A stretch of 64,000 bases of DNA, from NCBI GenBank assembly GCA_002269645.1, contig NIVC01001297.1, forward strand, positions 97,103-161,102. Direction: 5' to 3'. Numbering within the stretch: position 1 is the stretch's first letter; each line of letters begins with the position of its first letter. The notes beneath the pieces are model-generated. The model was not told the DNA's origin, ran no database searches, and was given only the letters and a program-made list of their open reading frames with translations. The position numbers and the translations under genes were made by a program. Origin of the DNA: Macrostomum lignano. Its lineage: Eukaryota. This document shows, in pieces, positions 16,039 through 34,690 of the stretch.

Positions 16039-16176
<138 letters not shown>

Positions 16177-16341
16177 TTATATAAACTTATAGAAAGTTAC
16201 ATTGGAGGGTGTGGATAGCAAACAGAAGTTAACTTGAATAGGTAGAGGGGGGGCACCCCCAAGACACAGTGAAGTGTAAATAATGAGAAATTGCGGCTGT
16301 ACACCTTGTCAGCCGAGCCTAACAAGCCCTCAGACTCTCAC

Positions 16342-16657: not shown

Positions 16658-16714
16658 CTGTCAAGCGGCGGTTTGCGGCTGTTTTTAATGATGCCTTTGA
16701 TGTTTTATTATGCT

Positions 16715-17945: not shown

Positions 17946-18730
17946 GCATTGATTGGAGGGTTTCACACTTTTATCTGCTTTTTAAAACCGTATCAATCTA
18001 TTTACTGATAATTTTTCCACAAAAAAGCTTTTCATACTTTGAGTACGCAGAATATCCGCAAGAAAGGCGACTTATGTCACACAAGTTGCTACCCATAATT
18101 GCGAAGTAAGTTGCAATTCTTTTTTTAGTACAGTAGAAGACATTTAAACCCGAAAGACTGACAGTTTCAAGTTTGGCTCCCAATTTCTTCTTAATTGTCT
18201 TCTTTCACCCTTCAGATTCTTCCATTTTGAAGCAAGAAGAAGTCACTCGCATGAATTTGCATCCTCAGCATAGCTTTTCAAGAATTTTAGCACCGAATGA
18301 AGCTGAGCACCTGCGACTGGCAAGACAGATTCACACGCAATCCAACTGTCACTGTTGCCAGGGTGGCATATCCTTACTAGTGAATTAAAAGAAGCTACAA
18401 AAACTCTTTCAATCCACGAAAAGGCTTCAAAGTTGCTGCGAGAATAAAAAACTGCTTTTAGAAGAACCCCGAAAAGTGTCCCGAGTGCCGGGGCAAGGCA
18501 ATTGTTCCAAACCATGCTTGGAGCAGGTAAAATTAGTACTGAGGCATCCCCGAGGCCACGGAGCGGAATAAAACGCATTAGCAACAGTTGATAGATGGTA
18601 AAAAACAGCAGAGTGCAACCAGCTAGATTGATGCACCTCGGTAAGGTAAGCCTGACGCAAATAAAAAACCAATCAAGCGTTTTGAGCAAGAGAGCAAGAG
18701 ATCTGCTCAGCATCAATATCATTCCATGCG

Positions 18731-18885
18731 AGTAGTAGAGGATAACACAACTCTGCCGCAGGGAAAGCCACGGAAATTCCGTGGGCCCGGATCAGAAGGG
18801 CGCCTATGTGTTTGCATGGCTCAACTCTGCCGCAGGCAAAGCCATGGGAATTCCGTAGACTCCTAATGAGAGTACATAGGCACCT
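18731..18885 (+). repeat. Left TIR of the Polinton
   Basis: Reverse complement of 34536-34690 with 1 mismatch in the first 139 bp and ~4 over 155 bp. Confidence 0.95.
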
Positions 18886-18952
18886 GTGTTCCATAGGGGT
18901 AGGCCCCCTAATGTGAATACATAGACGCATGTGTTTACATAGGAGATATTTG

Positions 18953-18960
18953 TATATAAA
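18953..18960 (+). promoter_or_regulatory. TATA box upstream of the PC4-like gene
   Basis: TATATAAA ~75 bp before ATG 19035, just inside the left TIR. Confidence 0.55.
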
Positions 18961-19034
18961 CCAGAAAATTTGTTTTCACAAATAATAAAATTTTTGAAAT
19001 TCTCGCTCCGTTACATCGTAATAACTAATTAATA

Positions 19035-19778
19035 ATGGTCGATATTGGAGAAGGCTACAAACTTCAAGTACAAGAGTATGAAGGAGTACAGTTTATTGCG
19101 ATTCGGAAATTTTATCGACATGGCAGCACAGCAAGTTTAAAACCCGGCGTTCCCGGATTTAACCTCAACATCCGACAATGGGAGAAGTTGAAAGAACTGA
19201 AGCGAACTCTCGTGAAGGCGGCCCTAGGCGGGCAACAGAGGATCATCAAACTCGGTTTTGATAAGTTTGTTGAGGTTAAGAACGGCATCATCTGGCTAAG
19301 ACGGCTTCCAGAAGATTGCTGCGAAGAATTTTTGAAGCGAAACACTGTGGCCTTGGCACCAGCTCTGTGGCGAAAACTGTGGGAGCAGGCTGCATGGATC
19401 GACGAGCAGCTGTCTGCCCCACGCCAAATTTCTGATGTGTATGAGCTGGAGTCGGGATCTTCGAGCGAGAGAAACGGTGATGATGATGACAACAGCAACA
19501 AGGACGACACCATGCGGCTTGCGAAGACTGAGGATGAGGGCGTCCAATCAAGCACTCTACGCATCGACGATGAAGTGGTCACATCAACGCCTCTACCGGT
19601 GACAAGTGCTGCAGCTGGCTTTATCCCAAAGCAGGATTCGGATTTGCTGCAGGACCCAGTCTGGTATCGCTTCCGGGCTGAAGCAGCTGCGGTCGAGAAC
19701 GTCAGGAAGCGCAAGCAACCATATCCGCTGCGCAGGCAGAATGCCATGAGACTGCGCCTCAATGAGGATGAGGAGTGA
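19035..19778 (+). CDS. PC4/Sub1-like ssDNA-binding protein (one clear and one degenerate PC4 domain, acidic linker, basic NLS-like tail)
   Basis: VQEYEGVQFIAIRKFY...KPGVPGFNLNIRQWEKLKEL matches the PC4 core (VRDFKGKVLIDIREYW...KPGRKGISLNPEQWSQLKE); second repeat ends ...VALAPALWRKLWE. Confidence 0.75.
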   Translation: MVDIGEGYKLQVQEYEGVQFIAIRKFYRHGSTASLKPGVPGFNLNIRQWEKLKELKRTLVKAALGGQQRIIKLGFDKFVEVKNGIIWLRRLPEDCCEEFLKRNTVALAPALWRKLWEQAAWIDEQLSAPRQISDVYELESGSSSERNGDDDDNSNKDDTMRLAKTEDEGVQSSTLRIDDEVVTSTPLPVTSAAAGFIPKQDSDLLQDPVWYRFRAEAAAVENVRKRKQPYPLRRQNAMRLRLNEDEE

Positions 19779-20035
19779 AGAAGAAGAATAAGAAGTGCTT
19801 TGAAGAACTTTGGTGACTGGTGACATACTTAAATTGGCTCATTTAACAATTTCTATAATTAACATTGCTCATTTATCCAGAAAACTTAATTAAGTCTCTC
19901 CATTTAAGAAAATCATGCAACTTATTGTTTCTTATCCGCTAAAAAATATAAAAGCTTCTTTTCATAAAAAAATTGTTTTCCTTTGTTCTTGTGCTTAAGA
20001 AAAAATTAGACTGTTGACTTTTGTTTCTTGAGAAA

Positions 20036-20165
20036 ATGGAAAAAAATTATTTGCTCCTGGCCAACCAGCTAGTTTTTCAATTTGCCCAACAGCTGCTGCA
20101 TCAAGTTAGAGAAGAGGGTGGGCATAAAAATTGAAAGAGCATTGAACAGTGGCTCAATGAGCAAA
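20036..20165 (+). pseudogene. Frameshifted duplicate of the integrase N-terminus
   Basis: Reads MEKNY/APGQPASFS.../QQLLHQVREEGGHKN*KSIEQWLNEQ versus integrase MEKIYYNPAQPASFSGVSKLLHELKK...KSIGQWLTEQ. Confidence 0.7.
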
Positions 20166-20224
20166 CCGCGAAAAGAACTTAAAAAAAATTGTTTTGCAGG
20201 CTTTCATTCAGCTTGATTTTGATA

Positions 20225-21295
20225 ATGGAAAAGATCTACTACAACCCTGCTCAGCCTGCCAGTTTCTCGGGTGTCTCAAAGCTTCTGCACGAGCTCAAGA
20301 AAACACAGGATAATCGTGAATCTAAAAAGAGCATCGGACAATGGCTGACTGAGCAGCCTGTGTACACACTGCACAAGCAAGCTAGGAGACGCTATCCTAT
20401 GGCACCAATCATTGTTAGGGCTATTGATGATCAGTGGGAACTTGACCTGGTTGAGATGATACCATTTGCAAAATACAATAACGGCTACAAGTATATTCTC
20501 ACATGTATAGATGTCCTCTCTAAATCTGGTTGGGCCAGGCCTCTAAAAAACAAATCAGCTGCGGAAGTCAAGTTCGCATTCGAGAGTATCCTGAGGTGCT
20601 CAAAGCGCCAGCCACGCACAGTCCGCACGGATCAAGGAAAAGAGTTCATCAATACCAATTTTCGGGAGCTCTGTATAAGCAAGGGAATTTTGGCATTCCC
20701 CACTAATAGTGAGCAAAAAGCAGCCATCATAGAGAGGTGGAATAGAACTTTGAAAAACAAAATGTGGCGATATTTCACCCACAAGAGCACTTTGCATTGG
20801 GTTGATGTGTTGCCAAAGCTGGTCAAGTCGTACAACAACACTTACCACAGAAGCATCAAAATGGCACCGACTAGCGTATGCAAAGAGAATGAGACTGAGG
20901 TCTGGATGAACCTTTACAATGGAAGAGCCATTGAGACTGTAAATAAGCCAAAGAAGCCCAAATTCAGTGAAAAGCAGTCAGTGAGAATTTCCAATGCACC
21001 CAGGCTATTCCACAAAGGATACAAGGCCAACTGGAGTGAGGAGGTGTACACTGTAGTATGTAGGGCACCGAAGCACTATCCGTACATGTACAAGATTAGG
21101 GACATAAAGGGTGAGGAGATCCGGGGTCTCTTTCATGAGCATGAGCTGCAGGCGGTGCCGGACTCACAGCGACTGTATGTGATTGAGAAGATTCTGAAAA
21201 CGGAGAAGAGGAAGGGAAAAATTCGCTATCTGGTGAAGTGGGCCGGCTACGACTCGACAGGCTGGGTGGATGAAAAAGACTTAAGAAAGGTTTAG
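20225..21295 (+). CDS. Retroviral-like (rve) integrase with C-terminal chromodomain
   Basis: DDE triad WELDLVEM / RTDQGKEF / IIERWNRTLK; chromodomain VIEKIL...YLVKWAGY; ATG at 20225. Confidence 0.95.
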   Translation: MEKIYYNPAQPASFSGVSKLLHELKKTQDNRESKKSIGQWLTEQPVYTLHKQARRRYPMAPIIVRAIDDQWELDLVEMIPFAKYNNGYKYILTCIDVLSKSGWARPLKNKSAAEVKFAFESILRCSKRQPRTVRTDQGKEFINTNFRELCISKGILAFPTNSEQKAAIIERWNRTLKNKMWRYFTHKSTLHWVDVLPKLVKSYNNTYHRSIKMAPTSVCKENETEVWMNLYNGRAIETVNKPKKPKFSEKQSVRISNAPRLFHKGYKANWSEEVYTVVCRAPKHYPYMYKIRDIKGEEIRGLFHEHELQAVPDSQRLYVIEKILKTEKRKGKIRYLVKWAGYDSTGWVDEKDLRKV

Positions 21296-21314
21296 CTTTT
21301 GCGCATCTCTTCTC

Positions 21315-22142
21315 ATGAGGTTTAACATTATAATGCGAACTATTTTGATTAACAGTGAGCATGCTGAAGGTACTCCTAGTGACTTTAATTTTTACTTGCC
21401 TTCACCTATTTACTTGGATCGAAATGTGGACTATGAGGCAGGTCTGGCTGAAATCCATCTGCCTGCTGCATGGTTCAATGTTGACGAGCCTTACTGCTTC
21501 ACTGTCTCAGATGGAAGAGAGCATGAGGCCCTGGTTCTTCAACCCGGACGCTTTGCTAGAGTGGAGGAGCTGGTGGAGCGTTTGAATCAGCTGCTGGCCA
21601 ACTCTGATTCGCTATTCTTTGATGCAATGAGTGACAGGGAGTCTGAGATGGAGGCTGATGAGTCCGGCCTGATGGGGCGTAGTGGCAACAGGGAATTCGG
21701 TATGAAGTTCGAAATCCGCAACTCACGAACTGTGGTGCACAACAACACTGCGAGAGCAGAGATGTTTCTCCCATCCAGCAAAATTCTGCATTGGCTGGGA
21801 TTTGGAAACCAGGCTGTGAAAATCCAGCCAGGGAGCCGCGTGTCCGAGCACTGCATTGGCTGCCCGCGCACCAGCTTAATCAATGTGCACTGCAGTATCG
21901 TTGAGTCAACTAATTGCAACTTGGGCTCCCTGTTGAGAACAGTTGGAATGAAAGCCGGCATTGAATGGGGCAACTATCAAACAAAAATATTTAAGAAAAC
22001 AATATTCTTCCCGATTCAACGAATCAGTCTTCTTCACAGCATTCGAGTTCAGCTGCGTGACATCTATGGTTGCCCACTGATTGCCCAGACACTCAGCCCT
22101 GTTCTGCTCACAGTTCAGATTCGGGAGAAACGCATTCAATGA
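21315..22142 (+). CDS. Minor capsid (penton, PX-type) protein
   Basis: N-terminal DFNFYLPSPIYL...YEAGLAEIHLPAAWFNV and C-terminal IRVQLRDIYG motifs typical of Polinton pentons; position before MCP. Confidence 0.75.
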   Translation: MRFNIIMRTILINSEHAEGTPSDFNFYLPSPIYLDRNVDYEAGLAEIHLPAAWFNVDEPYCFTVSDGREHEALVLQPGRFARVEELVERLNQLLANSDSLFFDAMSDRESEMEADESGLMGRSGNREFGMKFEIRNSRTVVHNNTARAEMFLPSSKILHWLGFGNQAVKIQPGSRVSEHCIGCPRTSLINVHCSIVESTNCNLGSLLRTVGMKAGIEWGNYQTKIFKKTIFFPIQRISLLHSIRVQLRDIYGCPLIAQTLSPVLLTVQIREKRIQ

Positions 22143-22528
22143 ACTACCAGCAGCTGATCCAGCAATATTCGGGGGTGAGGACAGGACACGAAAAGCCTGC
22201 ACTCTATGGCTGTGGGAGCTTTCCGGGGATCATGACATACCAGCCTCCGCCAGCGGCTACATCATCATTCTCAACGCATAGCAATGTCAGGCGCAAAAGA
22301 AATACTGAAGCAAGTCCGAAACGATTGAAGAAGAAGAAGTACACCCGAAAGGCAACTGGTAGAGATCGCACCAATAAGAGGTGCAATGAAAGAAATCCGA
22401 GCAAGGCTAGTAGGAAAAAGCTTAAGAATAGGAAGACGAAAGCAAAGAAGAATGCAGCAGGCGGAGGAAAGCGAAAGCGAAAAGTCAGCAAGAAAACTGT
22501 GAAACGCGTGCTCGACTCTCTGTCATAG
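22139..22528 (+). CDS. Small, highly basic putative virion core/DNA-condensing protein (129 aa)
   Basis: K/R-rich C-terminal two-thirds; ATG overlaps the upstream stop (ATGA); lies between penton and MCP. Confidence 0.6.
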   Translation: MNYQQLIQQYSGVRTGHEKPALYGCGSFPGIMTYQPPPAATSSFSTHSNVRRKRNTEASPKRLKKKKYTRKATGRDRTNKRCNERNPSKASRKKLKNRKTKAKKNAAGGGKRKRKVSKKTVKRVLDSLS

Positions 22529-22530
22529 AC

Positions 22531-23814
22531 ATGGCTTACGGATTCAATCCCAGACTTGATTTATTTAAGACGCCTGTTCTACAAACCTGCATTGAAAAAG
22601 CTACTTATGTTGATATTCACCCAGTAAATTCCATTACTGCAAACTCCCCCATTGAATTTGACTGCCACCAATCTGCCGATGAATACACTGATTTGCTTAA
22701 TTCTTTTCTTTATATTCGCTGCCGCCTTGTGAGACTGGATGGGGGTTTGCTGAGGGAGGATGTTCGAGATGGAGATGGCATCATCACCGAGCGCAGAGAC
22801 AGTGACGTGCACCCAGAAAACTTTGTTTTGTCTACAGCCTTCTCAGATGTAATTGTGAGCATTAACCAGCGAGTGGTATCTGGTGGAGACCAGCTCTATC
22901 CCTACCATGCGTACTTCAAAGCACTAATGAGCTCATCTGATGCCCAGCAACTAAAACTTTACCCTGCTGGCTTCCTGGAGCCGAACTCGGCAGCTGAAAA
23001 GCACACGGAGAGCCACAGGGAATCCCGATGGATGGAGTATGCGGGACCGCTCTTCAGCGATGTTTTCCAATGCCCAGTGTTTCTGCTAAACAATCTGCAC
23101 TTGCACATCAAACTGGTGCCCAGCGATGGGGCCTTTGCCATCAGAAGCCCGAATGCAAACAACGCGGCATACCGCATGGAAATCTCTCACTGCATTTTGC
23201 ATCTTCGCCGAGTCAAAGTGGTGCCCCACATCAGCCTGGCCCACGAGCAGGGGTTGACAAACCAAAATGCACTGTATCCCATCGAGCGAACTGAAATGCA
23301 GAACTTCATCCTACCCCAGGGCATTCAATCTAAAAACATTGAAGGATTCACTCATGGAAAATTGCCGAAGTTCATCATGCTGGCCTTCGTGAGCCACCGT
23401 GCATTCAACGGTCATCATCACGCGAGCCCGTTCCAGTTCCAGAGCTTCAACCTTAGCCAGTTGGCTCTAAAGAAAGGTGGGGAAACCGTGTGTCACGGTG
23501 CCTTCACACCTGAAAACAATTCCTTTGTAAGAGAATACTTACACTACCTGAAAAGCTGTCAATCTGCAAGCCACACGAACTCGGTTCCGTGGATCCCTTA
23601 CCAGCTCTTCTCCAACAACAGCACGGTGTTTGCATTCGATCTCACACCAGAGGGAGCGGCTCTGTGGTACGGACAGAAGGAGGGCAACCTGCGGTTGGAG
23701 ATTCGCTTCCGACAGGCTCTGGACGAAACGGTGTCCCTGATCGCTCTGTGCCTGTATGACTCGCTGATTGAGGTCACCAAGCACCGGGAGCTTTTGCTGG
23801 ACTATTCCTCTTAA
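22531..23814 (+). CDS. Major capsid protein (double jelly-roll, PY-type)
   Basis: LQTCIEKATYVDIHPVNSITANSPIEF...YTDLLNSFLYI; 427 aa; C-terminal GNLRLEIRF. Confidence 0.9.
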   Translation: MAYGFNPRLDLFKTPVLQTCIEKATYVDIHPVNSITANSPIEFDCHQSADEYTDLLNSFLYIRCRLVRLDGGLLREDVRDGDGIITERRDSDVHPENFVLSTAFSDVIVSINQRVVSGGDQLYPYHAYFKALMSSSDAQQLKLYPAGFLEPNSAAEKHTESHRESRWMEYAGPLFSDVFQCPVFLLNNLHLHIKLVPSDGAFAIRSPNANNAAYRMEISHCILHLRRVKVVPHISLAHEQGLTNQNALYPIERTEMQNFILPQGIQSKNIEGFTHGKLPKFIMLAFVSHRAFNGHHHASPFQFQSFNLSQLALKKGGETVCHGAFTPENNSFVREYLHYLKSCQSASHTNSVPWIPYQLFSNNSTVFAFDLTPEGAALWYGQKEGNLRLEIRFRQALDETVSLIALCLYDSLIEVTKHRELLLDYSS

Positions 23815-23819
23815 CTGGC

Positions 23820-24329
23820 ATGGAAGCAATTCAACTACTCCATCTCGCCAGAAAATTTTTGTCTTGCCGAAAATTCTTCATCATTACTTTACATTCACGC
23901 TATAAAAATGTATTGTCTTTGAGTCTAAAAAGAAAATATCGATCAATTCCCTTTGAAAACAAGTTTGTGTTTATCCTACTACAGCACAATGGCTCATTTG
24001 GTCATTGGGTGGTGTGCTATGCTGGGCAAGGAAATTGCATTGAGCTGTTCAACTCCCTCGGCTGGGAACCTGAAATTTTATCTGTGGTTTATAATTTGTT
24101 TCGAGAGATTAAAACAACTGGCTTTTATCTCCGAAGCAATATAAACAGATTTCAATGTGCTAACTCTAATAAATGCGGAGTGTTTTGCATCTATTTTGCT
24201 TATCAAAAGTTGCTGATCAATCGGTCATTTGAGGGTATTTTAAAGAGTTTGCACTCTAATGAAAAAAATCATTTGAATGATAGAATCTTACAGAGGTTTG
24301 AAGCCAACTTAAGAAAAAGATGTCCGTGA
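23820..24329 (+). CDS. Adenain-like cysteine maturation protease
   Basis: GHWV, LFNSLG, QCANSNKCGVFCIYF (His, Asn in place of Asp, Gln, Cys). Confidence 0.85.
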   Translation: MEAIQLLHLARKFLSCRKFFIITLHSRYKNVLSLSLKRKYRSIPFENKFVFILLQHNGSFGHWVVCYAGQGNCIELFNSLGWEPEILSVVYNLFREIKTTGFYLRSNINRFQCANSNKCGVFCIYFAYQKLLINRSFEGILKSLHSNEKNHLNDRILQRFEANLRKRCP

Positions 24330-24358
24330 TTTTCTAGAACTATATTTATGCATTAGAC

Positions 24359-25006
24359 ATGGGAGAAAAGCGAGTTTGCTACGATATCCGCCTCAGGCAG
24401 GGAAGCTGCATGATTGTCTGCGGGCCCACCAATGCAGGAAAAACAACCTTTGTCAAACACCTGATCCAGTACAGAGACGTCATGTTTGATGTGAAGCCTG
24501 GCAGAGTTCTGTGGTACTATGGGATCTCACAGGCAGGCCATGCAGAACTGAGCAGCCTAGGTGTGCAGCTGCGCCAGGGATTCCCCACCAACATCGAGGC
24601 AGCACTTAGGCCCAATGACCTGGTTGTTTTCGATGACTTAATAGAGGAAACTTCAAATTCTGCTTCAATGCGAAATTTTTTCACAGGAATCGCACATCAC
24701 TTGCCGTGCTTTTTGGTGATGCTGACTCAGAATATATTTTTCAAGGGAAAAGAGTCGCGAACAATGAGCTTGAATGTAATGTACTTAGCTATCTTGAAAA
24801 ACCCCCGAGACCAGCTGCAGATTGCAGCACTGGGCAGGCAGTGCTTTACAGAGAAGCCCGGCTTTCTGCTGTCAGTGTTCAAGCACGTGACCGCGCAGAA
24901 CAGGGGAGCCTACCTGTTCCTAGACTTTCACCCATCAACTCCCGATGAGCTGCGAGTGCGGGCCAGAATTTTGCCCAACCAGCGACCCCATCTTGTATTT
25001 GCTTAA
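24359..25006 (+). CDS. A32/FtsK-like genome-packaging ATPase
   Basis: Walker A GPTNAGKT, Walker B LVVFDD, HH...LTQN motif. Confidence 0.92.
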   Translation: MGEKRVCYDIRLRQGSCMIVCGPTNAGKTTFVKHLIQYRDVMFDVKPGRVLWYYGISQAGHAELSSLGVQLRQGFPTNIEAALRPNDLVVFDDLIEETSNSASMRNFFTGIAHHLPCFLVMLTQNIFFKGKESRTMSLNVMYLAILKNPRDQLQIAALGRQCFTEKPGFLLSVFKHVTAQNRGAYLFLDFHPSTPDELRVRARILPNQRPHLVFA

Positions 25007-25048
25007 GAAAGTGAAGCTTGTTTTTTATCGGCTATTGTTTTCATCGCT

Positions 25049-25387
25049 ATGGAAGTGCTTGATTCACATGCAAGTCTTTTTGCGGTTCTTGCGTCACCTA
25101 AATATACCGTGCGCTTCAAGCAGCTGTTGATAAAAAATTGTCCAAAAGAAGTGCGTTATTTTCTTGTTGAGGCCTGTCATAATCTCTTACAAAACAATTT
25201 ATCGTTTTCGATCGATGAAAAAGCTGTTCTTGCAAAGTCAAAAGAGATAATTCGAAAAATTACTCAGCAGAGAAGAAAGATAGACTTGTTAAAGGCTGGC
25301 TTCATCAAAATACTCCCGATTCTGCTTAAGCTGGTCAAGAAAAAGAAGCAAAATGAACAAATTTTCAGAAATGGTTCTGATTTCTAA
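25049..25387 (+). CDS. Conserved small Polinton protein (PW-like) with amphipathic basic C-terminus
   Basis: EACHNLLQNN...KEIIRKI...LLKAGFIKILPILLKL resembles the conserved Polinton protein ending in GGFL. Confidence 0.55.
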   Translation: MEVLDSHASLFAVLASPKYTVRFKQLLIKNCPKEVRYFLVEACHNLLQNNLSFSIDEKAVLAKSKEIIRKITQQRRKIDLLKAGFIKILPILLKLVKKKKQNEQIFRNGSDF

Positions 25388-26045
25388 AGCAGAGTATGAG
25401 ATGTTAGTGCAGAATTTGAAGCCAAATGAGACTAGCACTGACGCTGACTTGAAGCAGGCTCAGAAGAAATGCGATGATATCTTGTATGCCGAGGATTATC
25501 CAGAAGATGTGAAAACCGCCATGTATCAAAGTGCAATGCAAAGTTTGCTGGCCAAGCGCAAGCACGCTGGAAAAGAAGGATCACGAAATACTGAAGCCAA
25601 GTTGATGAAAATAGAGACACCCCAGATGAACACCTGGGAAGAGAAGATCAGCAAGTCGGTGCCACAGAAATTCAAAACCAGGGCTCGCAGTCTATGGACG
25701 ATCCTGTCCACCAATCCAGAGCTGATTGGAGTTTGTGAAAACGGAGAGGTGGAAATCGCAGGCACGTCAATCCCTTCCTCAAACATACTGGACTTGATTC
25801 AGCACGCAGTGAGGGATTCGTCATGTGAGCGTGAACCAGTTGGGTGGAACGAGTTCATCGATTTGCTGCAGCAGAAAAAGCTTAATGTTCCGCTTTCCGC
25901 TATTGGTAAATCAGTTAAGAAGAAAATGGCAACCAGCAGAGGGGGTGAACTGGAGAAAGAACAGGAGAGTCTAGTCAAGGGGTACGGGAGCAACACAGCC
26001 TGGCTGAAACTGCCTGGCAGAAAAGTATATAAGAAGGTGGACTGA
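25353..26045 (+). CDS. Conserved Polinton protein (PZ-like); may start at ATG 25371
   Basis: GEVEIAGTSIPSSNILDLI...PVGWNEF...LNVPLSAIG motif. Confidence 0.7.
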   Translation: MNKFSEMVLISKAEYEMLVQNLKPNETSTDADLKQAQKKCDDILYAEDYPEDVKTAMYQSAMQSLLAKRKHAGKEGSRNTEAKLMKIETPQMNTWEEKISKSVPQKFKTRARSLWTILSTNPELIGVCENGEVEIAGTSIPSSNILDLIQHAVRDSSCEREPVGWNEFIDLLQQKKLNVPLSAIGKSVKKKMATSRGGELEKEQESLVKGYGSNTAWLKLPGRKVYKKVD

Positions 26046-26073
26046 CTCCGAAATTTCGAGGGAAAGCTGCATC

Positions 26074-26925
26074 ATGAACTACATTGACTTCCAAGGATTC
26101 CCGTGCAACAGCACAAGCAAAAACTTTGTTGTGAAGGAGTTGGCAGTTGTTCAAGTCAGAGCGGGAAGCTACCGAATTGCTCACCATGTGTACGCACCTC
26201 CGTATCCATGGGAGAGAGTCTCACCTGACATGCGAGTTTGCTACAGACAGCTATCAAAGAGTCTGCACCAGTTTAAGTGGAATGATGGAACCCGTCCGTA
26301 CATGGAACTGGCGGAAGACATTCTGAGGATTGCCAGTGGTCCGATCTGGACAAATGGGGAAAGGAAGTCTATTTTCCTGACTGAGCTGCTTGGTAGACAG
26401 GTTTATAACCTAGAAGATTTGGGAGCACCCTCGACTGAAGATTCAGATACTGGCTGTGCAGTGAGAAATTCGTTGCTGCACTACAGTTGGCTTAAGCCAA
26501 AGTTCTGCATCAACTTAAGAAGCGAGCAGTGTCCGTGGCACACGAGCAGTAAAGTTGGCAGAAGCAGATTTGGTGAAGAAGTTGACGATCGAAATGAGCC
26601 CACCAGCTACAGCCCTAAGAGTGAGCAATCTGGTTGGCGGAGTAGATCTGAGGCTGGATGGTGGCAGGGGCGCTCAGCTACCTCTACGGGAACTGGCTCT
26701 CAGCATGGCTCATGTGATCTACCGGCCCGTCTGGCCCCGGGTGCTCATCAAGCGGATGCGAAGTCCCAGAGTGACTCTGCTACTCTACCCTACTGGGCAA
26801 CTGAGCATCTGCGGTGCCAAGACCCACGCAGACGCCAAAAGGGCTGCCCGTCGCTTCGTGGCTATGCTGCATCGGAGAGTGCCAGCTCAACTGCTGCCTC
26901 CTCAAGCCATTTGTGTTCGGATTAA
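26074..26925 (+). CDS. DnaQ/DEDD-like nuclease-fold protein (about first 160 aa) with a low-complexity tail overlapping the TBP gene
   Basis: IDFQGF...FVVKELAVV...APPYPW...KWNDG...VYNLEDLG...CPWH pattern, as seen in Polinton accessory exonuclease-like genes. Confidence 0.6.
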   Translation: MNYIDFQGFPCNSTSKNFVVKELAVVQVRAGSYRIAHHVYAPPYPWERVSPDMRVCYRQLSKSLHQFKWNDGTRPYMELAEDILRIASGPIWTNGERKSIFLTELLGRQVYNLEDLGAPSTEDSDTGCAVRNSLLHYSWLKPKFCINLRSEQCPWHTSSKVGRSRFGEEVDDRNEPTSYSPKSEQSGWRSRSEAGWWQGRSATSTGTGSQHGSCDLPARLAPGAHQADAKSQSDSATLPYWATEHLRCQDPRRRQKGCPSLRGYAASESASSTAASSSHLCSD

Positions 26926-27184
26926 AACTATTACTGCTCATGGTAAATTTAACTTCTGCAATGCTTTGTCCCTCACAAATCTTGCTGCCTCTGGCATACT
27001 GTCTTACGCTGAGTATGAGCCCGAGTCGTTCTCTGCTCTAATTTATACATTACGTTATTGTAAATGCTTGTTATTTCATACTGGTTCTTTTGTTCTTAGT
27101 GGAGCAAAATCTATGAGCATGTTGCGCTTCGACCTTTCTACGTTACATAGTTTAATCAGCCAGTTTATCACCTATCAAAAATAA
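26594..27184 (+). CDS. TATA-binding protein (TBP) homolog, 196 aa core domain only
   Basis: Both TBP repeats align: VSNLVG...LYPTGQLSICGAK...AARRF and YEPESFSALIY...LLFHTGSFVLSGAK; first ATG at 26594 (the ORF-track start is a TTG). Confidence 0.9.
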   Translation: MSPPATALRVSNLVGGVDLRLDGGRGAQLPLRELALSMAHVIYRPVWPRVLIKRMRSPRVTLLLYPTGQLSICGAKTHADAKRAARRFVAMLHRRVPAQLLPPQAICVRIKTITAHGKFNFCNALSLTNLAASGILSYAEYEPESFSALIYTLRYCKCLLFHTGSFVLSGAKSMSMLRFDLSTLHSLISQFITYQK

Positions 27185-27914
27185 ACAAAAAGTGTGTTCC
27201 GTTTGTTCTTGAATGTTTGCGTAAATTCATTACGGAAAACCGCATCTTTAAATTATTTATTTTTATTTTAAAAAATAAGTTTTAACTAAAAAATTAAAGG
27301 TGAAATGAGCATAGAATAATTGAAAACTGGGAGCTAAAACGCGTAATCAGATCTCTCCCCTCACAAAAACAGAAAAAGGGCATAGAACCCATTCCAAAAA
27401 GGTTCTGCCAAAAGCGAAATTGCTTAGATTGATACACGTGAATGAAGAAATTAATTAATCAAACTCGACTGACACTCATACATGTAACTGGACCGCAAAA
27501 TTACAAGATAGAGGCAAGAAATTTCAACAAAAGCAATGCAAAGAAATGTTTTAGCATCATGTTAAAAAATTAATAAATGAACATAAAACTCAGCAATAAA
27601 AATTTCAATACATTAAATTTACTGACTTTGCAATTTAATATTACGAGTAGAAATCGTGCAGTTACAAGGTACTGAAATAAAATTACTAATAAATTAATAG
27701 CTAGCATTAAGACTTCAGACAAAAAGTTCAAAAAGACACTAAAATTACGGTGAAACAGGGGAGGCAAATTGCTGCAACTTCTTCTATCTGAGATAGCAAA
27801 ATTGAGACAGCATATAATTTAAACGGATAAAGGCGAGTATATGTTTGAAGAAACCAAAGACTAAATATTCAGAATAAAATGTGTAGAGGCCGTGTGATAA
27901 AAAGTTATACTCAG

Positions 27915-30900
27915 TCACTTATTAAATTCGTAGTCTTCTTCCCGTCGCCGCTTTCGGGAGGCTGTAGCATTCACGTGCTGTTGCAGCTGCGACGACTCCG
28001 GATGAAGAAGTTGAAAATGGCCAAACGGGAGACTGTAGTTCGGTGCAAGCCAAGCGCGCTTGTCCTCCCAAATGCTTAAGGCACACTTTCGCTGCTGCAG
28101 CGTGAATAGCCTGTGTTGGATGCTAGCGATCCTGTGGATGATGACGGACATGCTACTCAGATCATTGAAGACTCTCAAGTAATCACTATGCGCAATCTCC
28201 TTCTTGACAACACATCCTTGAATGCCTTTGGCTTTTTTCTTTTCAGCAGTTGCAGTGCTAGCGAGAAAGGAATACAGCTTTGGTCTCAAAAGCAACCATT
28301 CGAGATAGCGAGCTCCAGCTCCTTCGTCCTTGATGCAACCGAGGCGAGCTTTCAATTCATTTGAGAACAGCGGGTGCTCAGGTGAATAGTTGGAAGTGTC
28401 AAGGAGTTTCTTTGCTTTTAGCAGTGGAAGAACTTCCGACTGCACATCCATATTCTGAATGCAAAGAAAGAGCGAGTCGGTGTCTCCACCACAGAGCCGA
28501 ACACGGGCACCCTCTTGCTCAAGCCAAGGCTTCAATTTGTCGTAGAATAACTCGTACATGATTAGCTTCGAATAGTCAAGAACACACTGGCCAATAAAAA
28601 TCGGACGATCAAGCTTGACCTTAGTCTTCTGGAATTCAATTATGCTCAGTGAGTCGGTAATTATGATAAAGTTCTTAATGGATGGTTTTGAAGCCAGCAC
28701 CTTTGCTTTTGCAGTGTTGGTGCAAATCCGAATGTCACGTCGCTTACGCACGTTTTCCATTGTTTTTCCGAAGAGCGCATTGTTTTTTAGTTTGTAGTAG
28801 TCTTTCTCGAAGCTGTTTGTCGCAGCAGCTCTTTTCACGCTGTTCATGTTAACATAGTCAGCAAATATCGGCTCCTGTTTGTACTCAATCATTCGATTAA
28901 TTCGTTTGATTTTCATTCCATGGCTCAAGTAGAATGCCAAGATAGCCGAATGAAGCACATAACTCTGCTTGTCATGGCAGGTGAGCAGAAGTTTTTCTGC
29001 CGAACGATAGGCTGCTTTGTCTCCAGTAATCTGCCTCCAAAGCTGTTGCATGTAGGCAGGAAATTCTTTGAATTTTGGTGCTTCTTTTTCTGGTGCAAAA
29101 GGCAAATCTTCAGTGGTGGAATGTATCTCTGCTGGATATAGAAGATCGACATCGAGCAGATAAGCAATTGGATCTGAGATTTTGAGCCCTCGGATACGAT
29201 CCTCGGTCCACAGCTGTAGCTCATCTTCGGAAAGCCAGCGAAATCCATTTGCAGGTAAGTTCATGGTAAGAGCTTGACCGTAAAGGTTGTTAGCATCTAC
29301 TGCTAGAAGCTCGGTAGGAACAGCTTGATCAGCGCCCTCGTCGTGACAGTCATCATCATCATCATCATTGTCATTGCAGATAGTCTGATTGTCAGCTGCT
29401 TCCAAATTTTTTCTAATATCTGGAGAGTTGGCTGACACTCTGTGTATGTTCACAAATGACATGCCACCGCGAATACCGCGCTCGAATGTTGCATACATTT
29501 GCGAATCCGTAATCAGCTCGATTCTGGATTTGAGAGACTTCAGTGCTGAAGCAAAAGATAATCCCGGGGTTGAAACGAAATGCACCGGATCAAGGCCATC
29601 ATCACGAAGGCTGAGCTTGCGAAAATTTTCAAAGACATCGGCGAGCTGCCGAATGTCAAGCTCAAGGTAGCATAGCATGTACTCTTTCAGCGTTTTAACT
29701 TGGAATTCATGCCATGCTTTCTGTGCATGCCTGTAATCCTCATCACTGCAGTGGCTTTTAGTCAGAACGTTGTAGAATTGTTCTTTACTTGGCAGCTCGG
29801 TATCCTCAAGGACATTTGAATTAGTTAAGTAGTCGTACGGAAAAGTGCATTTTCTGAATAAAACTTCTGGAGACAACAGTGGAAACTTACTTTTTAGCAG
29901 GCTAGTGATGGTGCACTCTTCTTCTGGCAGGTTCTTGATCAGCTGAGCCAAGCTGGCGTTGAGAAATTGGTTAGAATCAATGAATTGAATGGTAAAGAAC
30001 AATGGCTTAGTCTTTCCTCCCCTCTCGTACTCATCGATTTTGAAGTCAACTTTCATTGAAACAAACTGCTCAGGATTCTGTGGAATAACCGAAATCCTCC
30101 ATCCATCCATGAGATCCAAAGCCGTTGACATAATGAGATGAAGGTCATAGCCTTTTAGATTGTGGAAAACCACAGGAAGAAAGCGCCTTTTTAGACGAGC
30201 CTGCATGTTGCACTGAGCACAGGCTGCACCTCGGAATTCGCCACTGAGGTGATCATGATCCCAGTGCTTTCCGCTTTCACTATCAAAGCCGCTTCCGCAG
30301 TAGTGACACGATATAGCGTCGCGGAAGCGTTGCTTTGCAGCCTCCGTTCTAATAGCCGTCTGATGACTGAACTCCGTGTTCCAGCCATAAACCTCTCGAG
30401 CTAGCTGTTCAAGGGACTGCAAGAAGTCAGAAACACACTTTTTCGGATTTTCACTCACAAATATGTTAACATCATTGTCGACTCCTATAGGTGATAACCC
30501 TGTGAGGCCTGCTCGGTGCACCACCAAGTAACCAGCAGCAACGGCAACATGCTCTGTCAGCTTTACAGTGCTCGAACCAGCTTCAGTCTGCTGCCCTGTG
30601 TGAGGTGCATTCAATGCCTCGAAGTCGGCGTACACAATGAATGGTGGGCTGATTGTCTTTTCCCACGCCGTAAACCGAAGTACATTGTGATCTTCATCCG
30701 GAAGTTCTTCCTGAACAAAAATCCCACCAGGCTCACAGATATCTTCACAGTGCTCATCGAACGCCTTGCTAGTGTGAAATGACAGCAGACATCGCTCACA
30801 CCACTTTCGCTGGTACAGGTGGGCTTTACTGTTCAGCAATCTGTTGATGTTCGAGACAGCACACCAATGACCACCAGCTGAGTTCTCGTTCGTGGATGGT

Positions 30901-31748
30901 GGAAGAAACATCAGCAGGACAACTGTTCGTCCTCTCATGGTAGCTGCGCTTGGCTGTCGGAGGACTTCAGCAGCTTCATTCTCCCAGGTGAAAACAGTGA
31001 AGCAAAGGGTTGGATTTAATTCCTCGACAGCAGACAGATCGTACAAATTGATCGGCAGACTCAGTCCCGTAATGTTAATCTCATCTAGCCATTCGGTGTA
31101 CGAGGATTCTCGTTGAGCTGACTTCTTAATACGGCAGTGATCTTTGTGAAGAAAGGCAAGGCACGCGTAAACAAAGCAATTTTCACCGCTGCTAGGAGGA
31201 GAAATGACGGCCTTCTTTTGAAAAAGCGCAGTCGGCAAACTAAACCCAGCCGCATGCCCCGAATAGTAGGGAGTTCGAACAGCGAGGGCAGAGCAAAGGT
31301 CGAAGAAATTTATTTTGTCAATGGCCCATCCACTGCCATTAGCGTTGTACACGTCTACTCTCTGCTCTAACTCTGCAAATTGCTGCCTCCACCAGTCATC
31401 AAATTCCTGCACATCAACCAGCATACAAAGATTTGTACTCATCCATTTGTTTTCAACATTGACTGCTTCTGCTGCCTGCACCCGAATCATGCGCACGTTT
31501 AGCTTAATTTGTGCTCTTAGCGAACAGTTGTCAAAGGAGTCAAGACGAACTTCGAGATACTGCAGAACCGCATGTTTGACCAGGTCTAGAAACTCGAATG
31601 GATCAATGTCAGCTGTTGGGGCGAAGCGATGAATCTGCAGTACATCATCGTGGGCACTGTTCACCAAGGAGATAACACATGAAGACCCTAAAAATAAAAT
31701 CGAGAGATAAGATAGTGAAAATTGAGAAACATAAACTGAGAGTCTCAT
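27915..31748 (-). CDS. Protein-primed family B DNA polymerase (pPolB) with endonuclease-VII-like Zn insertion
   Basis: VYADFE, CHYC...DHDHLSGEFRGAACAQCN, FHNLKGYD, FIDS, DANNLYG, KLKNNALFGK, GDTDS; 1277 aa uninterrupted; true 5' end may be spliced (see findings). Confidence 0.95.
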   Translation of the reverse strand: MRLSVYVSQFSLSYLSILFLGSSCVISLVNSAHDDVLQIHRFAPTADIDPFEFLDLVKHAVLQYLEVRLDSFDNCSLRAQIKLNVRMIRVQAAEAVNVENKWMSTNLCMLVDVQEFDDWWRQQFAELEQRVDVYNANGSGWAIDKINFFDLCSALAVRTPYYSGHAAGFSLPTALFQKKAVISPPSSGENCFVYACLAFLHKDHCRIKKSAQRESSYTEWLDEINITGLSLPINLYDLSAVEELNPTLCFTVFTWENEAAEVLRQPSAATMRGRTVVLLMFLPPSTNENSAGGHWCAVSNINRLLNSKAHLYQRKWCERCLLSFHTSKAFDEHCEDICEPGGIFVQEELPDEDHNVLRFTAWEKTISPPFIVYADFEALNAPHTGQQTEAGSSTVKLTEHVAVAAGYLVVHRAGLTGLSPIGVDNDVNIFVSENPKKCVSDFLQSLEQLAREVYGWNTEFSHQTAIRTEAAKQRFRDAISCHYCGSGFDSESGKHWDHDHLSGEFRGAACAQCNMQARLKRRFLPVVFHNLKGYDLHLIMSTALDLMDGWRISVIPQNPEQFVSMKVDFKIDEYERGGKTKPLFFTIQFIDSNQFLNASLAQLIKNLPEEECTITSLLKSKFPLLSPEVLFRKCTFPYDYLTNSNVLEDTELPSKEQFYNVLTKSHCSDEDYRHAQKAWHEFQVKTLKEYMLCYLELDIRQLADVFENFRKLSLRDDGLDPVHFVSTPGLSFASALKSLKSRIELITDSQMYATFERGIRGGMSFVNIHRVSANSPDIRKNLEAADNQTICNDNDDDDDDCHDEGADQAVPTELLAVDANNLYGQALTMNLPANGFRWLSEDELQLWTEDRIRGLKISDPIAYLLDVDLLYPAEIHSTTEDLPFAPEKEAPKFKEFPAYMQQLWRQITGDKAAYRSAEKLLLTCHDKQSYVLHSAILAFYLSHGMKIKRINRMIEYKQEPIFADYVNMNSVKRAAATNSFEKDYYKLKNNALFGKTMENVRKRRDIRICTNTAKAKVLASKPSIKNFIIITDSLSIIEFQKTKVKLDRPIFIGQCVLDYSKLIMYELFYDKLKPWLEQEGARVRLCGGDTDSLFLCIQNMDVQSEVLPLLKAKKLLDTSNYSPEHPLFSNELKARLGCIKDEGAGARYLEWLLLRPKLYSFLASTATAEKKKAKGIQGCVVKKEIAHSDYLRVFNDLSSMSVIIHRIASIQHRLFTLQQRKCALSIWEDKRAWLAPNYSLPFGHFQLLHPESSQLQQHVNATASRKRRREEDYEFNK

Positions 31749-31854
31749 GATTGCTTATAAATCCAGCTCAATTAGCTACTGTATTCATAATAATCGATGT
31801 CTGTATTCAGAATCGAGGAGGGTGTTTTTGGATGTATACAATCGATATAGGTGT

Positions 31855-32025
31855 GCAGAGGTGTGCGAAGTCGAGGTGGGGTGTCCAGAGTCGAGGAAGG
31901 GATGTGCAGAGTCGAGGTGGGGTGTCCGGAGTCGAGGAAGGGATGTGCAGAGTCGAGGAGGGGGTGTGCGGAGTCGAGGACGGGGGTGTGCAGAGTCAGG
32001 GTTGGTGTACGGACTCGGGGTGGGC
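31855..32025. repeat. Short G-rich tandem array inside the Polinton ((GT)GCAGAGTCGAGG(T/A)GG.. ~20 bp x7)
   Basis: Visible repeats of GAGTCGAGG. Confidence 0.8.
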
Positions 32026-32961
32026 GGGTGTTATTACGTATTAATTAAAACTGAATTAGTTACACATTTCGAGTTGAAGGTTTAAAATTTTTCCACTTCA
32101 AATATTGGTAAGAAAATAATTGATTTTTACATTAACAGAGTTGCAAAACTCACCTGCTCCTTCACCTTCTCCTCGCCTAGAACATGTAGGATCCTGCATG
32201 TTGCGACTGCCGGCTGCCAGGCAATGCTGATGCAGATTTGTCTGCTTCCAGCTTCGAATTGATCAATTTTAAGGCCAATGGCAATGCTTAGCTTAAAAAG
32301 GAATAATTAAGAAAAATGCAAAGTAGAGATCGAACCTAGTTAAGATGCTCTTATTCTATTCGCGATATTGAGACTTAACAACGAGCACCAAGCTATAGAA
32401 AAGCAGCCCGCTGATAGTAAAAACCTCAAAATCAAAACTAATAGTCGAGTAATGCGAATAGGTTGCCATGATGCGATAGCTTTTAGCATCAAATCCACCG
32501 ATACGAGTTGATTTGCTATTTTACTGTCTAGTTTGCGTTTTTTCTAAAAATAATTCAATGTTTATTATGAGAAAAAACAATGCAAAAACAACGTGTATTT
32601 GGTATAAACGGCTTTGTAGCAAGAAAATAATTTAGAAGAAGAAACTTTTATTTCGCATTAAATTACAAAATTTTTGCATAGAAAGCAGTATAATTCATTA
32701 TAAGCTACCATGTAAATTCTTGCTCTCCTAATAACTAAATATGAAAACAACCAAAGAGCCTCCAGCTTGATAAACTGCTTAGCCCAGCCCAACGAGATAA
32801 ATCACAGGTGACATGCACTGAAAAAATTAATTTAATTTAAGCAGTTTTTAACTTCTTTTAGAGCTCCTCCCCTTATCAAAAGTCCACTCATTTTTGTAGA
32901 ACTTTTGTGTGCGCTAAAAATTGGTTTCCCTTGCCAACAAAATACTCCAGGCTAAAGCAAA

Positions 32962-33999
32962 TTAAGAGTTACTCAAGCGAATACGGATCCCCCCTACAAA
33001 GTCAATTGAGTACTCGCCCACAACGCTACTCGGTAGGACGAATTGAAGGCAAACTGACGGTGCACCCATCGGTTCAGCGGTTTGGACGCCTGCTGATTGT
33101 TGAACCACCGGTGGGGTAGCATGAGGTTCGACTCCTGCTGATTGTGGAAACTCTGGTACCACCGGTGGGGTAGCATGAGGTTCGACTCCTGCTGATTGTT
33201 GAAACTCTGGTACCACCAGTGGGGTAGCATGAGGTTCGAAATCTCGTAGGAGATCAGACAGGCTGGCATCCGCCATCATTCCAGCCATATTTTTTCCAGC
33301 GACTGGAACAGCCCTGTGCGGTGGCTGCTGCTCGACCGTGGCTTTTTCGTTCGTCTCCCCCGGCTCCAACTCGTGCTCCTCAAAGAAAGCCGTGTCCAAT
33401 TCTGGCGGAGCAACAAAATCAGCGGCAGCAGCATCATCGTCATAGCGATTTACCGGTGTCTGAAGACTGAGAGCACCAGCCGCTGGAACGTCAATGCTGG
33501 CAGCTTGATGGTCAATGCCAGCAGGTCCAGGAGCAGCAGCTGGATAGTCGACGCTGGCAGGTCCAGGAAGGCCGGCAACATCAGCTGGATGCTGATCTGC
33601 AGCAGCAAGTGCAGCGGAAATCAAATCAAAAGTACATGTAGTTGAAATTATTGCAGATTGATTTCGCACACCTTGAATCGTCTGGCTCAGGGCGCTGACC
33701 GGGGCTCGATGACGCTCGATCATATTGAGTTGCTCCTGGCGGTGGGCGGCCTCCAGTACAGTAAAGCGGGCTCGTTCGATGCTATCAGGCGAGCTCCAAT
33801 TAATGATGGTGTGATTTTTATGGGCCCGAACTTGGCGGCGCACATTGAACAGCTCAGTTGTCTGGCACTCGTGGCAAAGCAACCAGCGACTTATAATGCA
33901 GCTGTCTTTTTTGTTATGGAGCTTTAACCCACCGAGCTCACAGGAATTGCAGCTGATGCACACCTCGTGCACGTAGGATGGACACCGAGATTTATTCAT
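32962..33999 (-). CDS. Polinton accessory protein: Cys/His-rich N-terminus with LxCxE match, acidic/Pro-Ala-rich middle, ~3x 18-aa repeats
   Basis: 345-aa ORF with ATG, upstream TATA box and acceptor-like TTTCTCATAG; function unknown. Confidence 0.7.
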   Translation of the reverse strand: MNKSRCPSYVHEVCISCNSCELGGLKLHNKKDSCIISRWLLCHECQTTELFNVRRQVRAHKNHTIINWSSPDSIERARFTVLEAAHRQEQLNMIERHRAPVSALSQTIQGVRNQSAIISTTCTFDLISAALAAADQHPADVAGLPGPASVDYPAAAPGPAGIDHQAASIDVPAAGALSLQTPVNRYDDDAAAADFVAPPELDTAFFEEHELEPGETNEKATVEQQPPHRAVPVAGKNMAGMMADASLSDLLRDFEPHATPLVVPEFQQSAGVEPHATPPVVPEFPQSAGVEPHATPPVVQQSAGVQTAEPMGAPSVCLQFVLPSSVVGEYSIDFVGGIRIRLSNS

Positions 34000-34077
34000 T
34001 ATTTAGAATTTATCTATGAGAAATTTAGTTTTGAATAAAATTTAAATTTAAACTTCTCATATACACATATTTAGCCT

Positions 34078-34085
34078 CTTATATA
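34078..34085 (-). promoter_or_regulatory. TATA box upstream of the 345-aa ORF
   Basis: TATATAAG on the minus strand ~80 bp before ATG 33999. Confidence 0.5.
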
Positions 34086-34535
34086 CCCACTTCAACCAAA
34101 TCTGTGTTAATAAAAACATAGCTGCTATGTTTTCAGCTTTGCTATGTTTACAGTCAGCCACCCAATGTCCAATGATTTCATCAGCGCATCCAGGTATTGA
34201 GCCCTTGTTAAATTCCCACACGCCCAGCTAAATTCTTTTGAATACGCCGCCAACTTTACCCCACCCAGTCGAGGGTGGCAATAAAACTGATAACTGAGCA
34301 CTCTCTCCTTTCAGCAACAAAGCCGCCGCCGCCGGCAGCTCCCAGACAGCGGGAGAGAGGCTTGGCTACCACTATTTTTGTTTACAGAAGTTTGTTATTA
34401 CCGATAAAATTATACAATAAAGTATTAGTATAATACTGAATACAATAAAATACCGCTGATATTTGCCAATCGTTCAACACAATTTCTAGAGATTCCCCTA
34501 GCTCGCCTCTGTGCATACTTGCGGATTCCCCCATG

Positions 34536-34690
34536 AGGCGCCAATGTACTTTCATTAGGAGTCTACGGAATTCCCATGGCTTTGCCTGCGGCAGAGTTGA
34601 GCTATGCAAACACATAGGCGCCCTTCTGATCCGGGCCCACGGAATTTCCGTGGCTTTCCCTGCGGCAGAGTTGTGTTATCCTCTACTACT
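34536..34690 (-). repeat. Right TIR of the Polinton
   Basis: See left TIR. Confidence 0.95.

Follow-up and report, generated by a model that had tools for sequence, protein, structure and literature searches.

A TATA-binding protein gene and a TATA-variant box ahead of most putative capsid and packaging genes in a Polinton of Macrostomum lignano

The element and its genes

The question addressed here is how integrated animal Polintons activate capsid genes, and if a helper virus is required for this. We analyzed a 64,000-nt stretch of the flatworm Macrostomum lignano (assembly GCA_002269645.1, contig NIVC01001297.1, positions 97,103 to 161,102 of the forward strand), referred to as the window, which contains a complete Polinton that encodes a TATA-binding protein (TBP) and carries a sense-strand box, YWTAAGAA, in front of most putative capsid and packaging genes. 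The element spans 15,960 bp (18731-34690), with AGTAGT and ACTACT ends. Its terminal inverted repeats (TIRs), defined by inverted-repeat comparison, are 156 nt long and 97% complementary and have the AG-rich ends by which Polintons/Mavericks are recognized; the left one (18731-18885, +) begins AGTAGTAG and the right one (34536-34690, -) ends CTACTACT. A 6-bp target-site duplication (TSD), CATGCG, flanks the element at 18725-18730 and 34691-34696, and the other copies checked have different 6-bp TSDs. The plus strand encodes, in this order, a PC4-domain protein, an integrase with a chromodomain, a putative minor capsid protein (mCP), a small basic protein, a putative major capsid protein (MCP), a protease, a packaging ATPase, the open reading frames (ORFs) ORF112, ORF230 and ORF283, and the TBP; the minus strand encodes pPolB and ORF345. 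An earlier note on this DNA had placed the TBP gene last in the plus-strand cassette of a Polinton, which the TIRs and the TSD confirm. In its TIRs, 6-bp TSD, pPolB and integrase, and in its putative ATPase, protease and capsid genes, the element resembles known Polintons and adintoviruses. The same cassette order, including a PC4 gene, recurs in a second family (family 2), whose MCP and ATPase are about 40% and whose TBP is 35-38% identical, and in which pPolB and PC4 sit at swapped ends relative to the family of the window (family 1); the TBP gene is thus retained in two families of differing layout.

Next to the left TIR, a candidate canonical TATA box (TATATAAA, 18953-18960, +) lies 82 nt 5' of the gene for a PC4/p15-domain protein of 247 aa (19035-19778, +; Pfam PF02229, E 4.8e-7, above the cut-off), which on the basis of this domain is a putative co-activator or single-stranded-DNA-binding protein. 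PC4-domain genes adjoin the TIR in both TBP-bearing families (L031 3364-3801 in family 2), the family-2 homolog scoring 24.1 bits against a Pfam cut-off of 25. By eye, a further ORF resembling the PC4 gene was seen beside a different pPolB element (L133 8279-8776, joined C173 stretch), and PC4 is not mentioned in the Polinton papers searched.

The retroviral-type integrase has 356 aa (20225-21295, +; Pfam rve E 2e-12, Chromo E 2e-5). It is followed by the genes for the putative mCP of 275 aa (21315-22142, +), labeled from its position and size and conserved in other families, a Lys/Arg-rich putative core protein of 129 aa (22139-22528, +) and the putative MCP of 427 aa (22531-23814, +), whose homologs in other elements are 29-98% identical. 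The putative MCP and mCP match no Pfam, PHROG or PDB entry, and their labels come from size, order and conservation. The putative adenain-like maturation protease (169 aa, 23820-24329, +) matches Peptidase_C5 below the Pfam cut-off (E 0.003), with fitting motifs and position. The putative A32-like packaging ATPase (215 aa, 24359-25006, +) has a Walker A motif and matches Pox_A32 below the cut-off (E 0.011), again at a fitting position; a search with Pfam PF04665 found no further ATPase family. ORF112 (112 aa, 25049-25387, +) is conserved, with a 110-aa ORF at the same position in family 2, and ORF230 (230 aa, 25353-26045, +) is conserved across elements. ORF283 (26074-26925, +) consists of a conserved domain of about 170 aa and a 110-codon tail that overlaps lobe 1 of the TBP in the -1 frame. 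It matches no Pfam, PHROG or PDB entry, and its structure model (pLDDT 35) gave no fold; it may resemble a DnaQ-like exonuclease. An AATAAA over the TBP stop codon (27180-27185, +) is a candidate poly(A) signal of the cassette.

On the minus strand, pPolB (27915-31748) matches only Endonuclease_7 in Pfam. The window protein itself has no PF03175 or PDB match, and its identity as a protein-primed family-B polymerase comes from a sister copy (C754), which is 42-53% identical and matches PF03175 with E 3.6e-18. The Endonuclease VII-like domain occupies residues 478-516 of the protein. The predicted gene ORF345 (32962-33999) has a candidate canonical TATA box (TATATAAG, 34078-34085, -) 86 nt 5' of it.

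Identity and spread of the element TBP

The ORF at 26594-27184 (+) is intact and intronless, encodes 196 aa and closes the plus-strand cassette. Pfam TBP (PF00352) matches its product in two stretches at E 4.8e-26; the score of 90.8 bits lies well above the cut-off of 22.9. Among solved structures, 35 TBP sequences match it at E<=0.001. The AlphaFold model has a mean pLDDT of 95 and a pTM of 0.86; in a Foldseek search, the top 44 ranks listed are all TBP chains, the best with a query TM-score (TMq) of 0.82 and a root-mean-square deviation of 1.7, and the best match among the BFVD viral models has E 2.6e-11. As judged from sequence and model, the product is a member of the TBP family with the two-lobe saddle fold, which bears out the intact, intronless, bipartite 196-aa TBP described in the earlier note.

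We numbered residues as in yeast TBP, through an alignment to the canonical TBP of the same genome (P0157). The element protein keeps N69 (N12 in the element), the stirrup glutamates E186 and E188 (E142 and E144), both GAK motifs and two of the four intercalating phenylalanines, F190 (F146) and F207 (F161). The other two are replaced, F116 by Tyr (Y65) and F99 by Pro (P48, preceded by W47). N159 and R196 are Thr (T112 and T152), and further changes on the DNA face are V161T (T114), V203K (K157), V122S (S71), T124C (C73) and K120Q (Q69). Every TBP residue named in the earlier note was recovered in this alignment. The loss of F99 and the exchange of F116 argue against canonical TATA specificity, not against membership of the TBP family. 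Compared with cellular TBPs (PF00352; eukaryotic TBP, TRF2/TBPL1 and archaeal TBP), the element protein shares the saddle (TMq 0.82) and the retained residues above, and differs at F99, F116, N159, V161, V203, V122, T124 and K120, in having almost no N-terminal extension, in being multicopy in a mobile element and in forming a clade of its own.

The altered DNA-contacting residues are changed alike across that clade. Specifically, Tyr occupies position 116 in 13 of 13 element proteins versus 1 of 34 others, and Thr or Ser replaces N159 and V161 in 7 of 7 element rows listed and in all ten proteins of family-1/2 type. Residues T61, L63, Y65, K111, T112, K157 and F161 of the DNA face are invariant in this altered state (8/8), and the TFIIB stirrup E-P-E-x-F (E142/P143/E144/F146) is invariant in the 8 proteins aligned and also across the ten family-1/2-type proteins. 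The basic helix 2 (KRAARRF) of the earlier note is present in family 1 but acidic in family 2, and so is not a feature of the clade.

A genome search with the TBP gave 151 matches from 150 of the 227 candidates scored, ten of them identical at the protein level; these matches are not independent insertions. By manual count, 94 of the 150 rows listed are near full length without a stop, and the closest named protein is from M. lignano (83%). The ratio of nonsynonymous to synonymous substitution rates (dN/dS) was estimated by the Nei-Gojobori method for 10 of the 32 distinct coding sequences, nine from family 1 and one from family 2. It is 0.05-0.28 for codons 1-110 (lobe 1) in 36 of 36 family-1 pairs and 0.07-0.36 for the remaining codons (lobe 2) in the 27 of 36 pairs that were not saturated, which indicates purifying selection rather than values near 1. 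An artefact, a pseudogene or a single insertion is ruled out by the multicopy matches, the purifying selection and the differing TSDs.

A third Polinton lineage (C4619; MCP 29% identical) has a remote TBP-like gene in its left arm. The C4619 protein matches our own TBP profile with E 1.6e-4; it does not itself reach the Pfam cut-off, which two of its relatives exceed. The third-lineage profile matches the family-1/2 profile with 93.9% probability, and the gene has 67 matches in the genome. Its stirrup reads D-A-E-x-F. The gene may be spliced, since the expected start lacks an ATG and is closely preceded by a 3'-splice-like TTTTCAG. A C4619-type Polinton considered as a TBP-less control was rejected because it carries this gene. 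The third-lineage TBP-like genes (L143 2315-2932; L155; L156) adjoin a deoxynucleoside kinase gene and pPolB.

The element TBP is 28% identical to the core of the genome's own TBP. A FastTree phylogeny of 44 sequences groups the ten family-1/2-type proteins, seven of which were taken from public records or other assemblies, into a single clade (SH 0.99) that is separate from host TBP and TRF2. When the third lineage is included (47 sequences), the element clade has SH 0.96 and again lies apart from both. The earlier note had proposed a captured TBP or TRF: a true TBP under purifying selection stands, but recent capture from the host is ruled out by the low identity and the separate long-branch clade. 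Only recent capture is denied here, since the branches are long and the deeper position in the tree is uncertain. Host TBP and the TRF2-like gene have three matching places each and appear as single uninterrupted ORFs (L034 3710-4366; L035 3342-4514). Several relatives (P0003-5, P0007, P0045, P0164, P0165) lie on short contigs that show the TBP gene without neighbors. Compact TBPs of 168-190 aa (P0167, P0168, P0148, P0030, P0012) have Thr or Met at N159; their sequences place them near the element clade with weak support, and they may come from Polintons of other hosts. Viral contigs scanned with the TBP alignment, P0168, P0165, the MCP and the ATPase gave no match. A metagenome scan gave 48 TBP loci, all 48 closer to host TBP than to the element TBP and none adjoined by an element gene.

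In the window, the first 110 TBP codons overlap ORF283 in the -1 frame over 332 nt. The overlap measures 323-335 nt in 42 of the 43 family-1 copies listed, 206 nt in the remaining one, and 389 nt in two of three family-2 copies. Stops are avoided within it: T ends 0 of 17 codons at which a stop would arise versus 26 of 73 elsewhere in family 1 (p 0.002), and 0 of 12 versus 28 of 94 in family 2 (p 0.03), and the window copy shows no such bias past the overlap. The proportion of nonsynonymous differences in the ORF283 tail (pN 0.2) exceeds that of synonymous ones (pS 0.07), so the tail is not conserved as a protein, and only an open frame, not a conserved function of the tail, is supported. A frame left open to a late stop could shield nested transcripts from decay or couple expression. 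In several copies (L014, P0010), a frameshift fuses the ORF283 and TBP frames.

The element is also a mosaic. Compared with L036, L039 and L050, the block from the mCP gene to TBP lobe 1 has pS 0.02-0.17 versus 0.61-0.87 for the integrase, TBP lobe 2 and pPolB, a contrast which indicates that lobe 1 moves together with the capsid cassette, whereas lobe 2 stays with the polymerase arm. The recombination break lies at about TBP codons 110-120 (about 26920-26960 in the window); the capsid cassette with lobe 1 recombines with several divergent lobe-2/pPolB arms, and the integrase has been swapped as well. The position of the break at the lobe boundary may reflect only where homology ends.

A TATA-variant box upstream of the cassette genes

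Reading by eye upstream of start codons, we found a recurrent box, YWTAAGAA, which, aligned to the canonical TATAWAWR, has a fixed G at position 6; its commonest form, CTTAAGAA, differs from TATAWAWR at three positions. Along the plus strand, the boxes lie at 19903-19910 (TTTAAGAA, intergenic); at 19994-20001, 231 nt from the integrase ATG (39-47 nt in four other subfamilies); at 21280-21287, 35 nt 5' of the putative mCP gene; at 21990-21997, 149 nt 5' of the small basic gene, the same offset being found in five of five family-1 elements; at 22421-22428, 110 nt 5' of the putative MCP gene (107 nt in family 2); at 24308-24315, 51 nt 5' of the ATPase gene; at 25002-25009, spanning the ATPase stop codon 47 nt 5' of ORF112; at 26028-26035, 46 nt 5' of ORF283, where the box is present in 43 of 47 copies and in the subfamily of the window overlaps a canonical TATATAAG; and at 26514-26521, 80 nt 5' of the TBP ATG. 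All 44 family-1 copies examined carry CTTAAGAA 65-83 nt before the TBP gene, and the three family-2 copies have a canonical TATAAAAG at 53 nt. Between the integrase box and the intact integrase start lies a decayed duplicate of the integrase 5' end (20036-20100), likewise seen in the C1113 copy.

The window contains 12 matches to the box, nine of them in the cassette and all of these on the sense strand. Six cassettes (five family 1, one family 2) together hold 44 sense boxes and 1 antisense box, at a density of about 1.0 per kb; 133 kb of flanking DNA has 0.079 per kb per strand. Seven of the ten cassette genes of the window have a box within 160 nt upstream (P 3e-5), and the typical distance to the ATG is 35-60 nt. 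No box was found in the 7.5-kb pPolB arm or in the TIRs. The boxes fall in all three reading frames, on one stop codon and in intergenic DNA, and synonymous shuffling shows that they are not explained by protein sequence (6 observed versus 1.4 expected in the window, P 3e-4; 3 versus 0.6 in family 2, P 0.002). A canonical TATA without the box precedes PC4 and ORF345, and in family 2 PC4 and pPolB. Additionally, in the third lineage TATAAG occurs 11 times in sense and never in antisense, and a related pattern, chosen post hoc, stands ahead of 7 of 9 late-type genes (P 2e-4). In an AT-rich pPolB element that lacks a TBP match, the two strands have 5 and 5, with no bias. Its family (L119-L123, L135-L136; C2322, C925, C506) shows no match to the capsid genes or the TBP of the window; our impression is that several of its genes (L119-L123, L135-L136) have TATAAAA or AAAATAGA near the ATG, as in cytoplasmic or helper-dependent viruses.

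A proposed early/late programme and its alternatives

From the fold, the selection, the fixed substitutions and the position of the box, we consider it probable, with real room for doubt, that the element TBP reads the box and recruits host TFIIB and RNA polymerase II (Pol II) to the late genes, much as a herpesvirus viral TBP (vTBP) does. Host TBP would first transcribe the TIR-proximal genes with a canonical TATA, namely PC4 and ORF345, and in family 2 PC4, pPolB and TBP; in the subfamily of the window, the ORF283 promoter also carries an overlapping canonical TATA. The element TBP would then bind YWTAAGAA ahead of most of the integrase, capsid and packaging genes, and its unchanged acidic stirrup would recruit host TFIIB and hence Pol II. 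In family 1, the box before the TBP gene itself would give positive feedback. Pfam finds no TFIIB among the proteins of the window, and its TFIIB matches in the genome are 15 exon-like matches on 7 contigs. The earlier proposal that the protein steers host Pol II toward element promoters gains a candidate target in YWTAAGAA, to which the element TBP would have to bind.

Such a division of labor has a viral counterpart. ORF24 of Kaposi's sarcoma-associated herpesvirus is a viral TBP that pairs with TATTWAA late promoters and uses host Pol II (PMC12529657; PMC6541308). It has further domains and acts within a viral complex of six proteins; it assembles with Pol II beforehand and is modeled as incompatible with TFIIB (PMC12529657). 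The element resembles the beta- and gammaherpesviruses in having a TBP-like protein and a TATA-variant box before putative structural genes, with a function that would be similar. It differs in that its protein consists of a 196-aa core alone, with the TFIIB stirrup retained, and in that its box is YWTAAGAA; since the whole protein is TBP core, it is not a member of the herpesvirus vTBPs but only analogous to them. The two stirrup glutamates contact TFIIB, and many viral TBPs have diverged stirrups and come with an encoded TFIIB (PMC7221094). The element shares a viral TBP fold with nucleocytovirus TBPs and the poxviral VITF-3 (BFVD best E 2.6e-11), and the family-2 protein has lost the N-lobe regulatory surface, resembling the viral TBPs of PMC7221094. 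Unlike nucleocytovirus TBPs, it keeps a host-type stirrup without a TFIIB match, and its model superposes better on cellular TBP (TMq 0.8) than on most viral TBPs (0.35-0.75).

The novelty of a TBP in Polintons, which the earlier note had supposed, holds only in part. The accessible text of Starrett et al. 2021 (PMC8502044) has a TBP label in the legend of Fig. 5 without discussion, as does the preprint, and one supplement of that paper searched gave no TBP match. The Polinton literature searched, which excluded figures, closed supplements, Repbase Reports and subscription journals, gave no account of a TBP mechanism or a promoter box: neither TBP nor TATA occurs in the text of PMC10748475, PMC11071308, PMC11131425, PMC11296320, PMC11071296 or 10.64898/2026.06.19.733378, nor TATA in the accessible text of PMC8097293. 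What is new here is the sense-strand YWTAAGAA box ahead of most putative capsid and packaging genes of a TBP-bearing Polinton. The capsid genes of coral polintoviruses are described as clustering apart in expression (PMC11131425), which fits a transcription programme.

Several points weigh against the proposed switch. The box was spotted by eye and then tested largely on the same elements, which is partly circular, and five of the six cassettes belong to one family, so that the elements are not independent; on both counts the P values exaggerate how independent the evidence is. In the third lineage the motif was chosen post hoc, and over the whole window the box count shows no excess (12 versus 14.4 in shuffles). 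The protease has no upstream box, ORF230 has only a relaxed one (CTTAAGCT, 28 nt upstream), the window pPolB has neither a canonical TATA nor a box within 100 nt, the MCP gene of L045 and L046 is not preceded by a box, and box-to-ATG distances range from 12 to 231 nt. As a negative control, a TBP-less Polinton with this capsid type was looked for but not found. One box form, TATAAGAA, is a single base from canonical, so host TBP may read some sites, and the stirrup is degenerate in the third lineage. TBP's N-terminal lobe contacts positions 5-8 of the TATA box, and the yeast TBP mutant L114F reportedly gains recognition of TATAAG; the N-lobe changes are tied to the G at position 6 only through this yeast work.

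The strongest competing explanation, which we regard as unlikely but worth serious attention, is that the box is a real promoter element read by host TBP or by one of ORF283, ORF230, ORF112 and ORF345, with the element TBP acting as a helper or shield (for example against Mot1, NC2 or TAF1) rather than as the specificity factor. The near-canonical TATAAGAA and the canonical TATA that overlaps the box before ORF283 would suit such a reader, several conserved element ORFs match nothing in the libraries, and ORF283 is locked to the TBP through their conserved overlap. Yet the commonest form, CTTAAGAA, is three positions off TATAWAWR, the changes in the TBP affect residues that touch DNA and are fixed throughout the clade, and in the third lineage a different TBP is accompanied by a different box.

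It is improbable that the protein is instead a dominant-negative decoy, a poor DNA binder that titrates TFIIB or TFIIA and damps host transcription or an antiviral response. F99 is lost while the stirrup is kept, and F116 has become Tyr, a Phe-to-Tyr exchange at the most conserved DNA-contacting position being described as affecting TATA binding (PMC7221094). But the altered DNA face is itself conserved rather than decayed, with seven residues invariant in 8 of 8 proteins, the basic patch of helix 2 is acidic in family 2, and the decoy leaves the box unexplained. A general inhibitor would also be expected to hit the element's own Pol II genes. For the dominant-negative action suggested in the earlier note, we found no positive evidence.

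Slightly less credible still is that TAAG serves as the late initiator used by a helper virus's RNA polymerase, the TBP having another job. Baculovirus and nudivirus late promoters use TAAG, and TAAG is the invariant core of the box in three of three lineages; related Polinton-like viruses are described, in the accessible part of the source, as sharing promoter motifs with helper giant viruses. Against this, the element has its own TBP with a Pol II-type stirrup, canonical TATA boxes at the terminal genes and an AATAAA at the cassette end, the box-to-ATG distance of 35-60 nt fits a TATA position, and no helper virus was seen. We give least credence to a role of TBP and PC4 in replication or packaging, bending termini and binding single strands with the box as a packaging or structural signal, since neither the TIRs nor the pPolB arm carries a box, and the boxes are strand-specific and placed one per gene before start codons, even though PC4 folds bind single-stranded DNA and the PC4 gene is TIR-proximal like pPolB in both families.

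If the element TBP does read the box, the viral-TBP strategy for late genes would reach from herpesviruses and giant viruses to 16-kb elements, and natural TBP variants of changed specificity would be at hand for understanding TATA recognition. A TBP with a matching box would offer a concrete mechanism that needs no helper and that could be tested with a single small protein and a site of 8 nt. Maverick virions had not been observed according to the accessible part of PMC8097293, and the flatworm host appears to have transgenesis tools (PMC5730564). More tentatively, and at somewhat less than an even chance, distant lineages of animal Polintons may each run a self-contained early/late programme, in which a re-specified TBP is paired with a co-evolved TATA-variant box (YWTAAGAA, or TATAAGC in the third lineage), Tyr116 marks the G at position 6 and host TFIIB is recruited. 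Recombination between the lobes would exchange the halves that face TFIIB from one polymerase arm to another, and the lobe reading the 3' half of the box would stay with the capsid cassette under its control. If so, no smaller viral take-over of Pol II initiation would be known, and these elements would provide a natural series of orthogonal TBP-promoter pairs.

Outside the element, two minus-strand stretches (16319-16633 and 39988-40572) both match galactose-1-phosphate uridylyltransferase, one taking up where the other leaves off, so that the entire Polinton appears to lie inside an intron of the host GALT gene. Very dense minisatellite arrays fill the host introns at 1-18700 and 34700-64000. 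The window also contains an ABHD17-like hydrolase exon (51109-51516) and a RING-finger ORF (147-797) and, as judged by eye, a mitochondrial-carrier-like ORF (44897-45829, -) and retroelement fragments (54598-55930).

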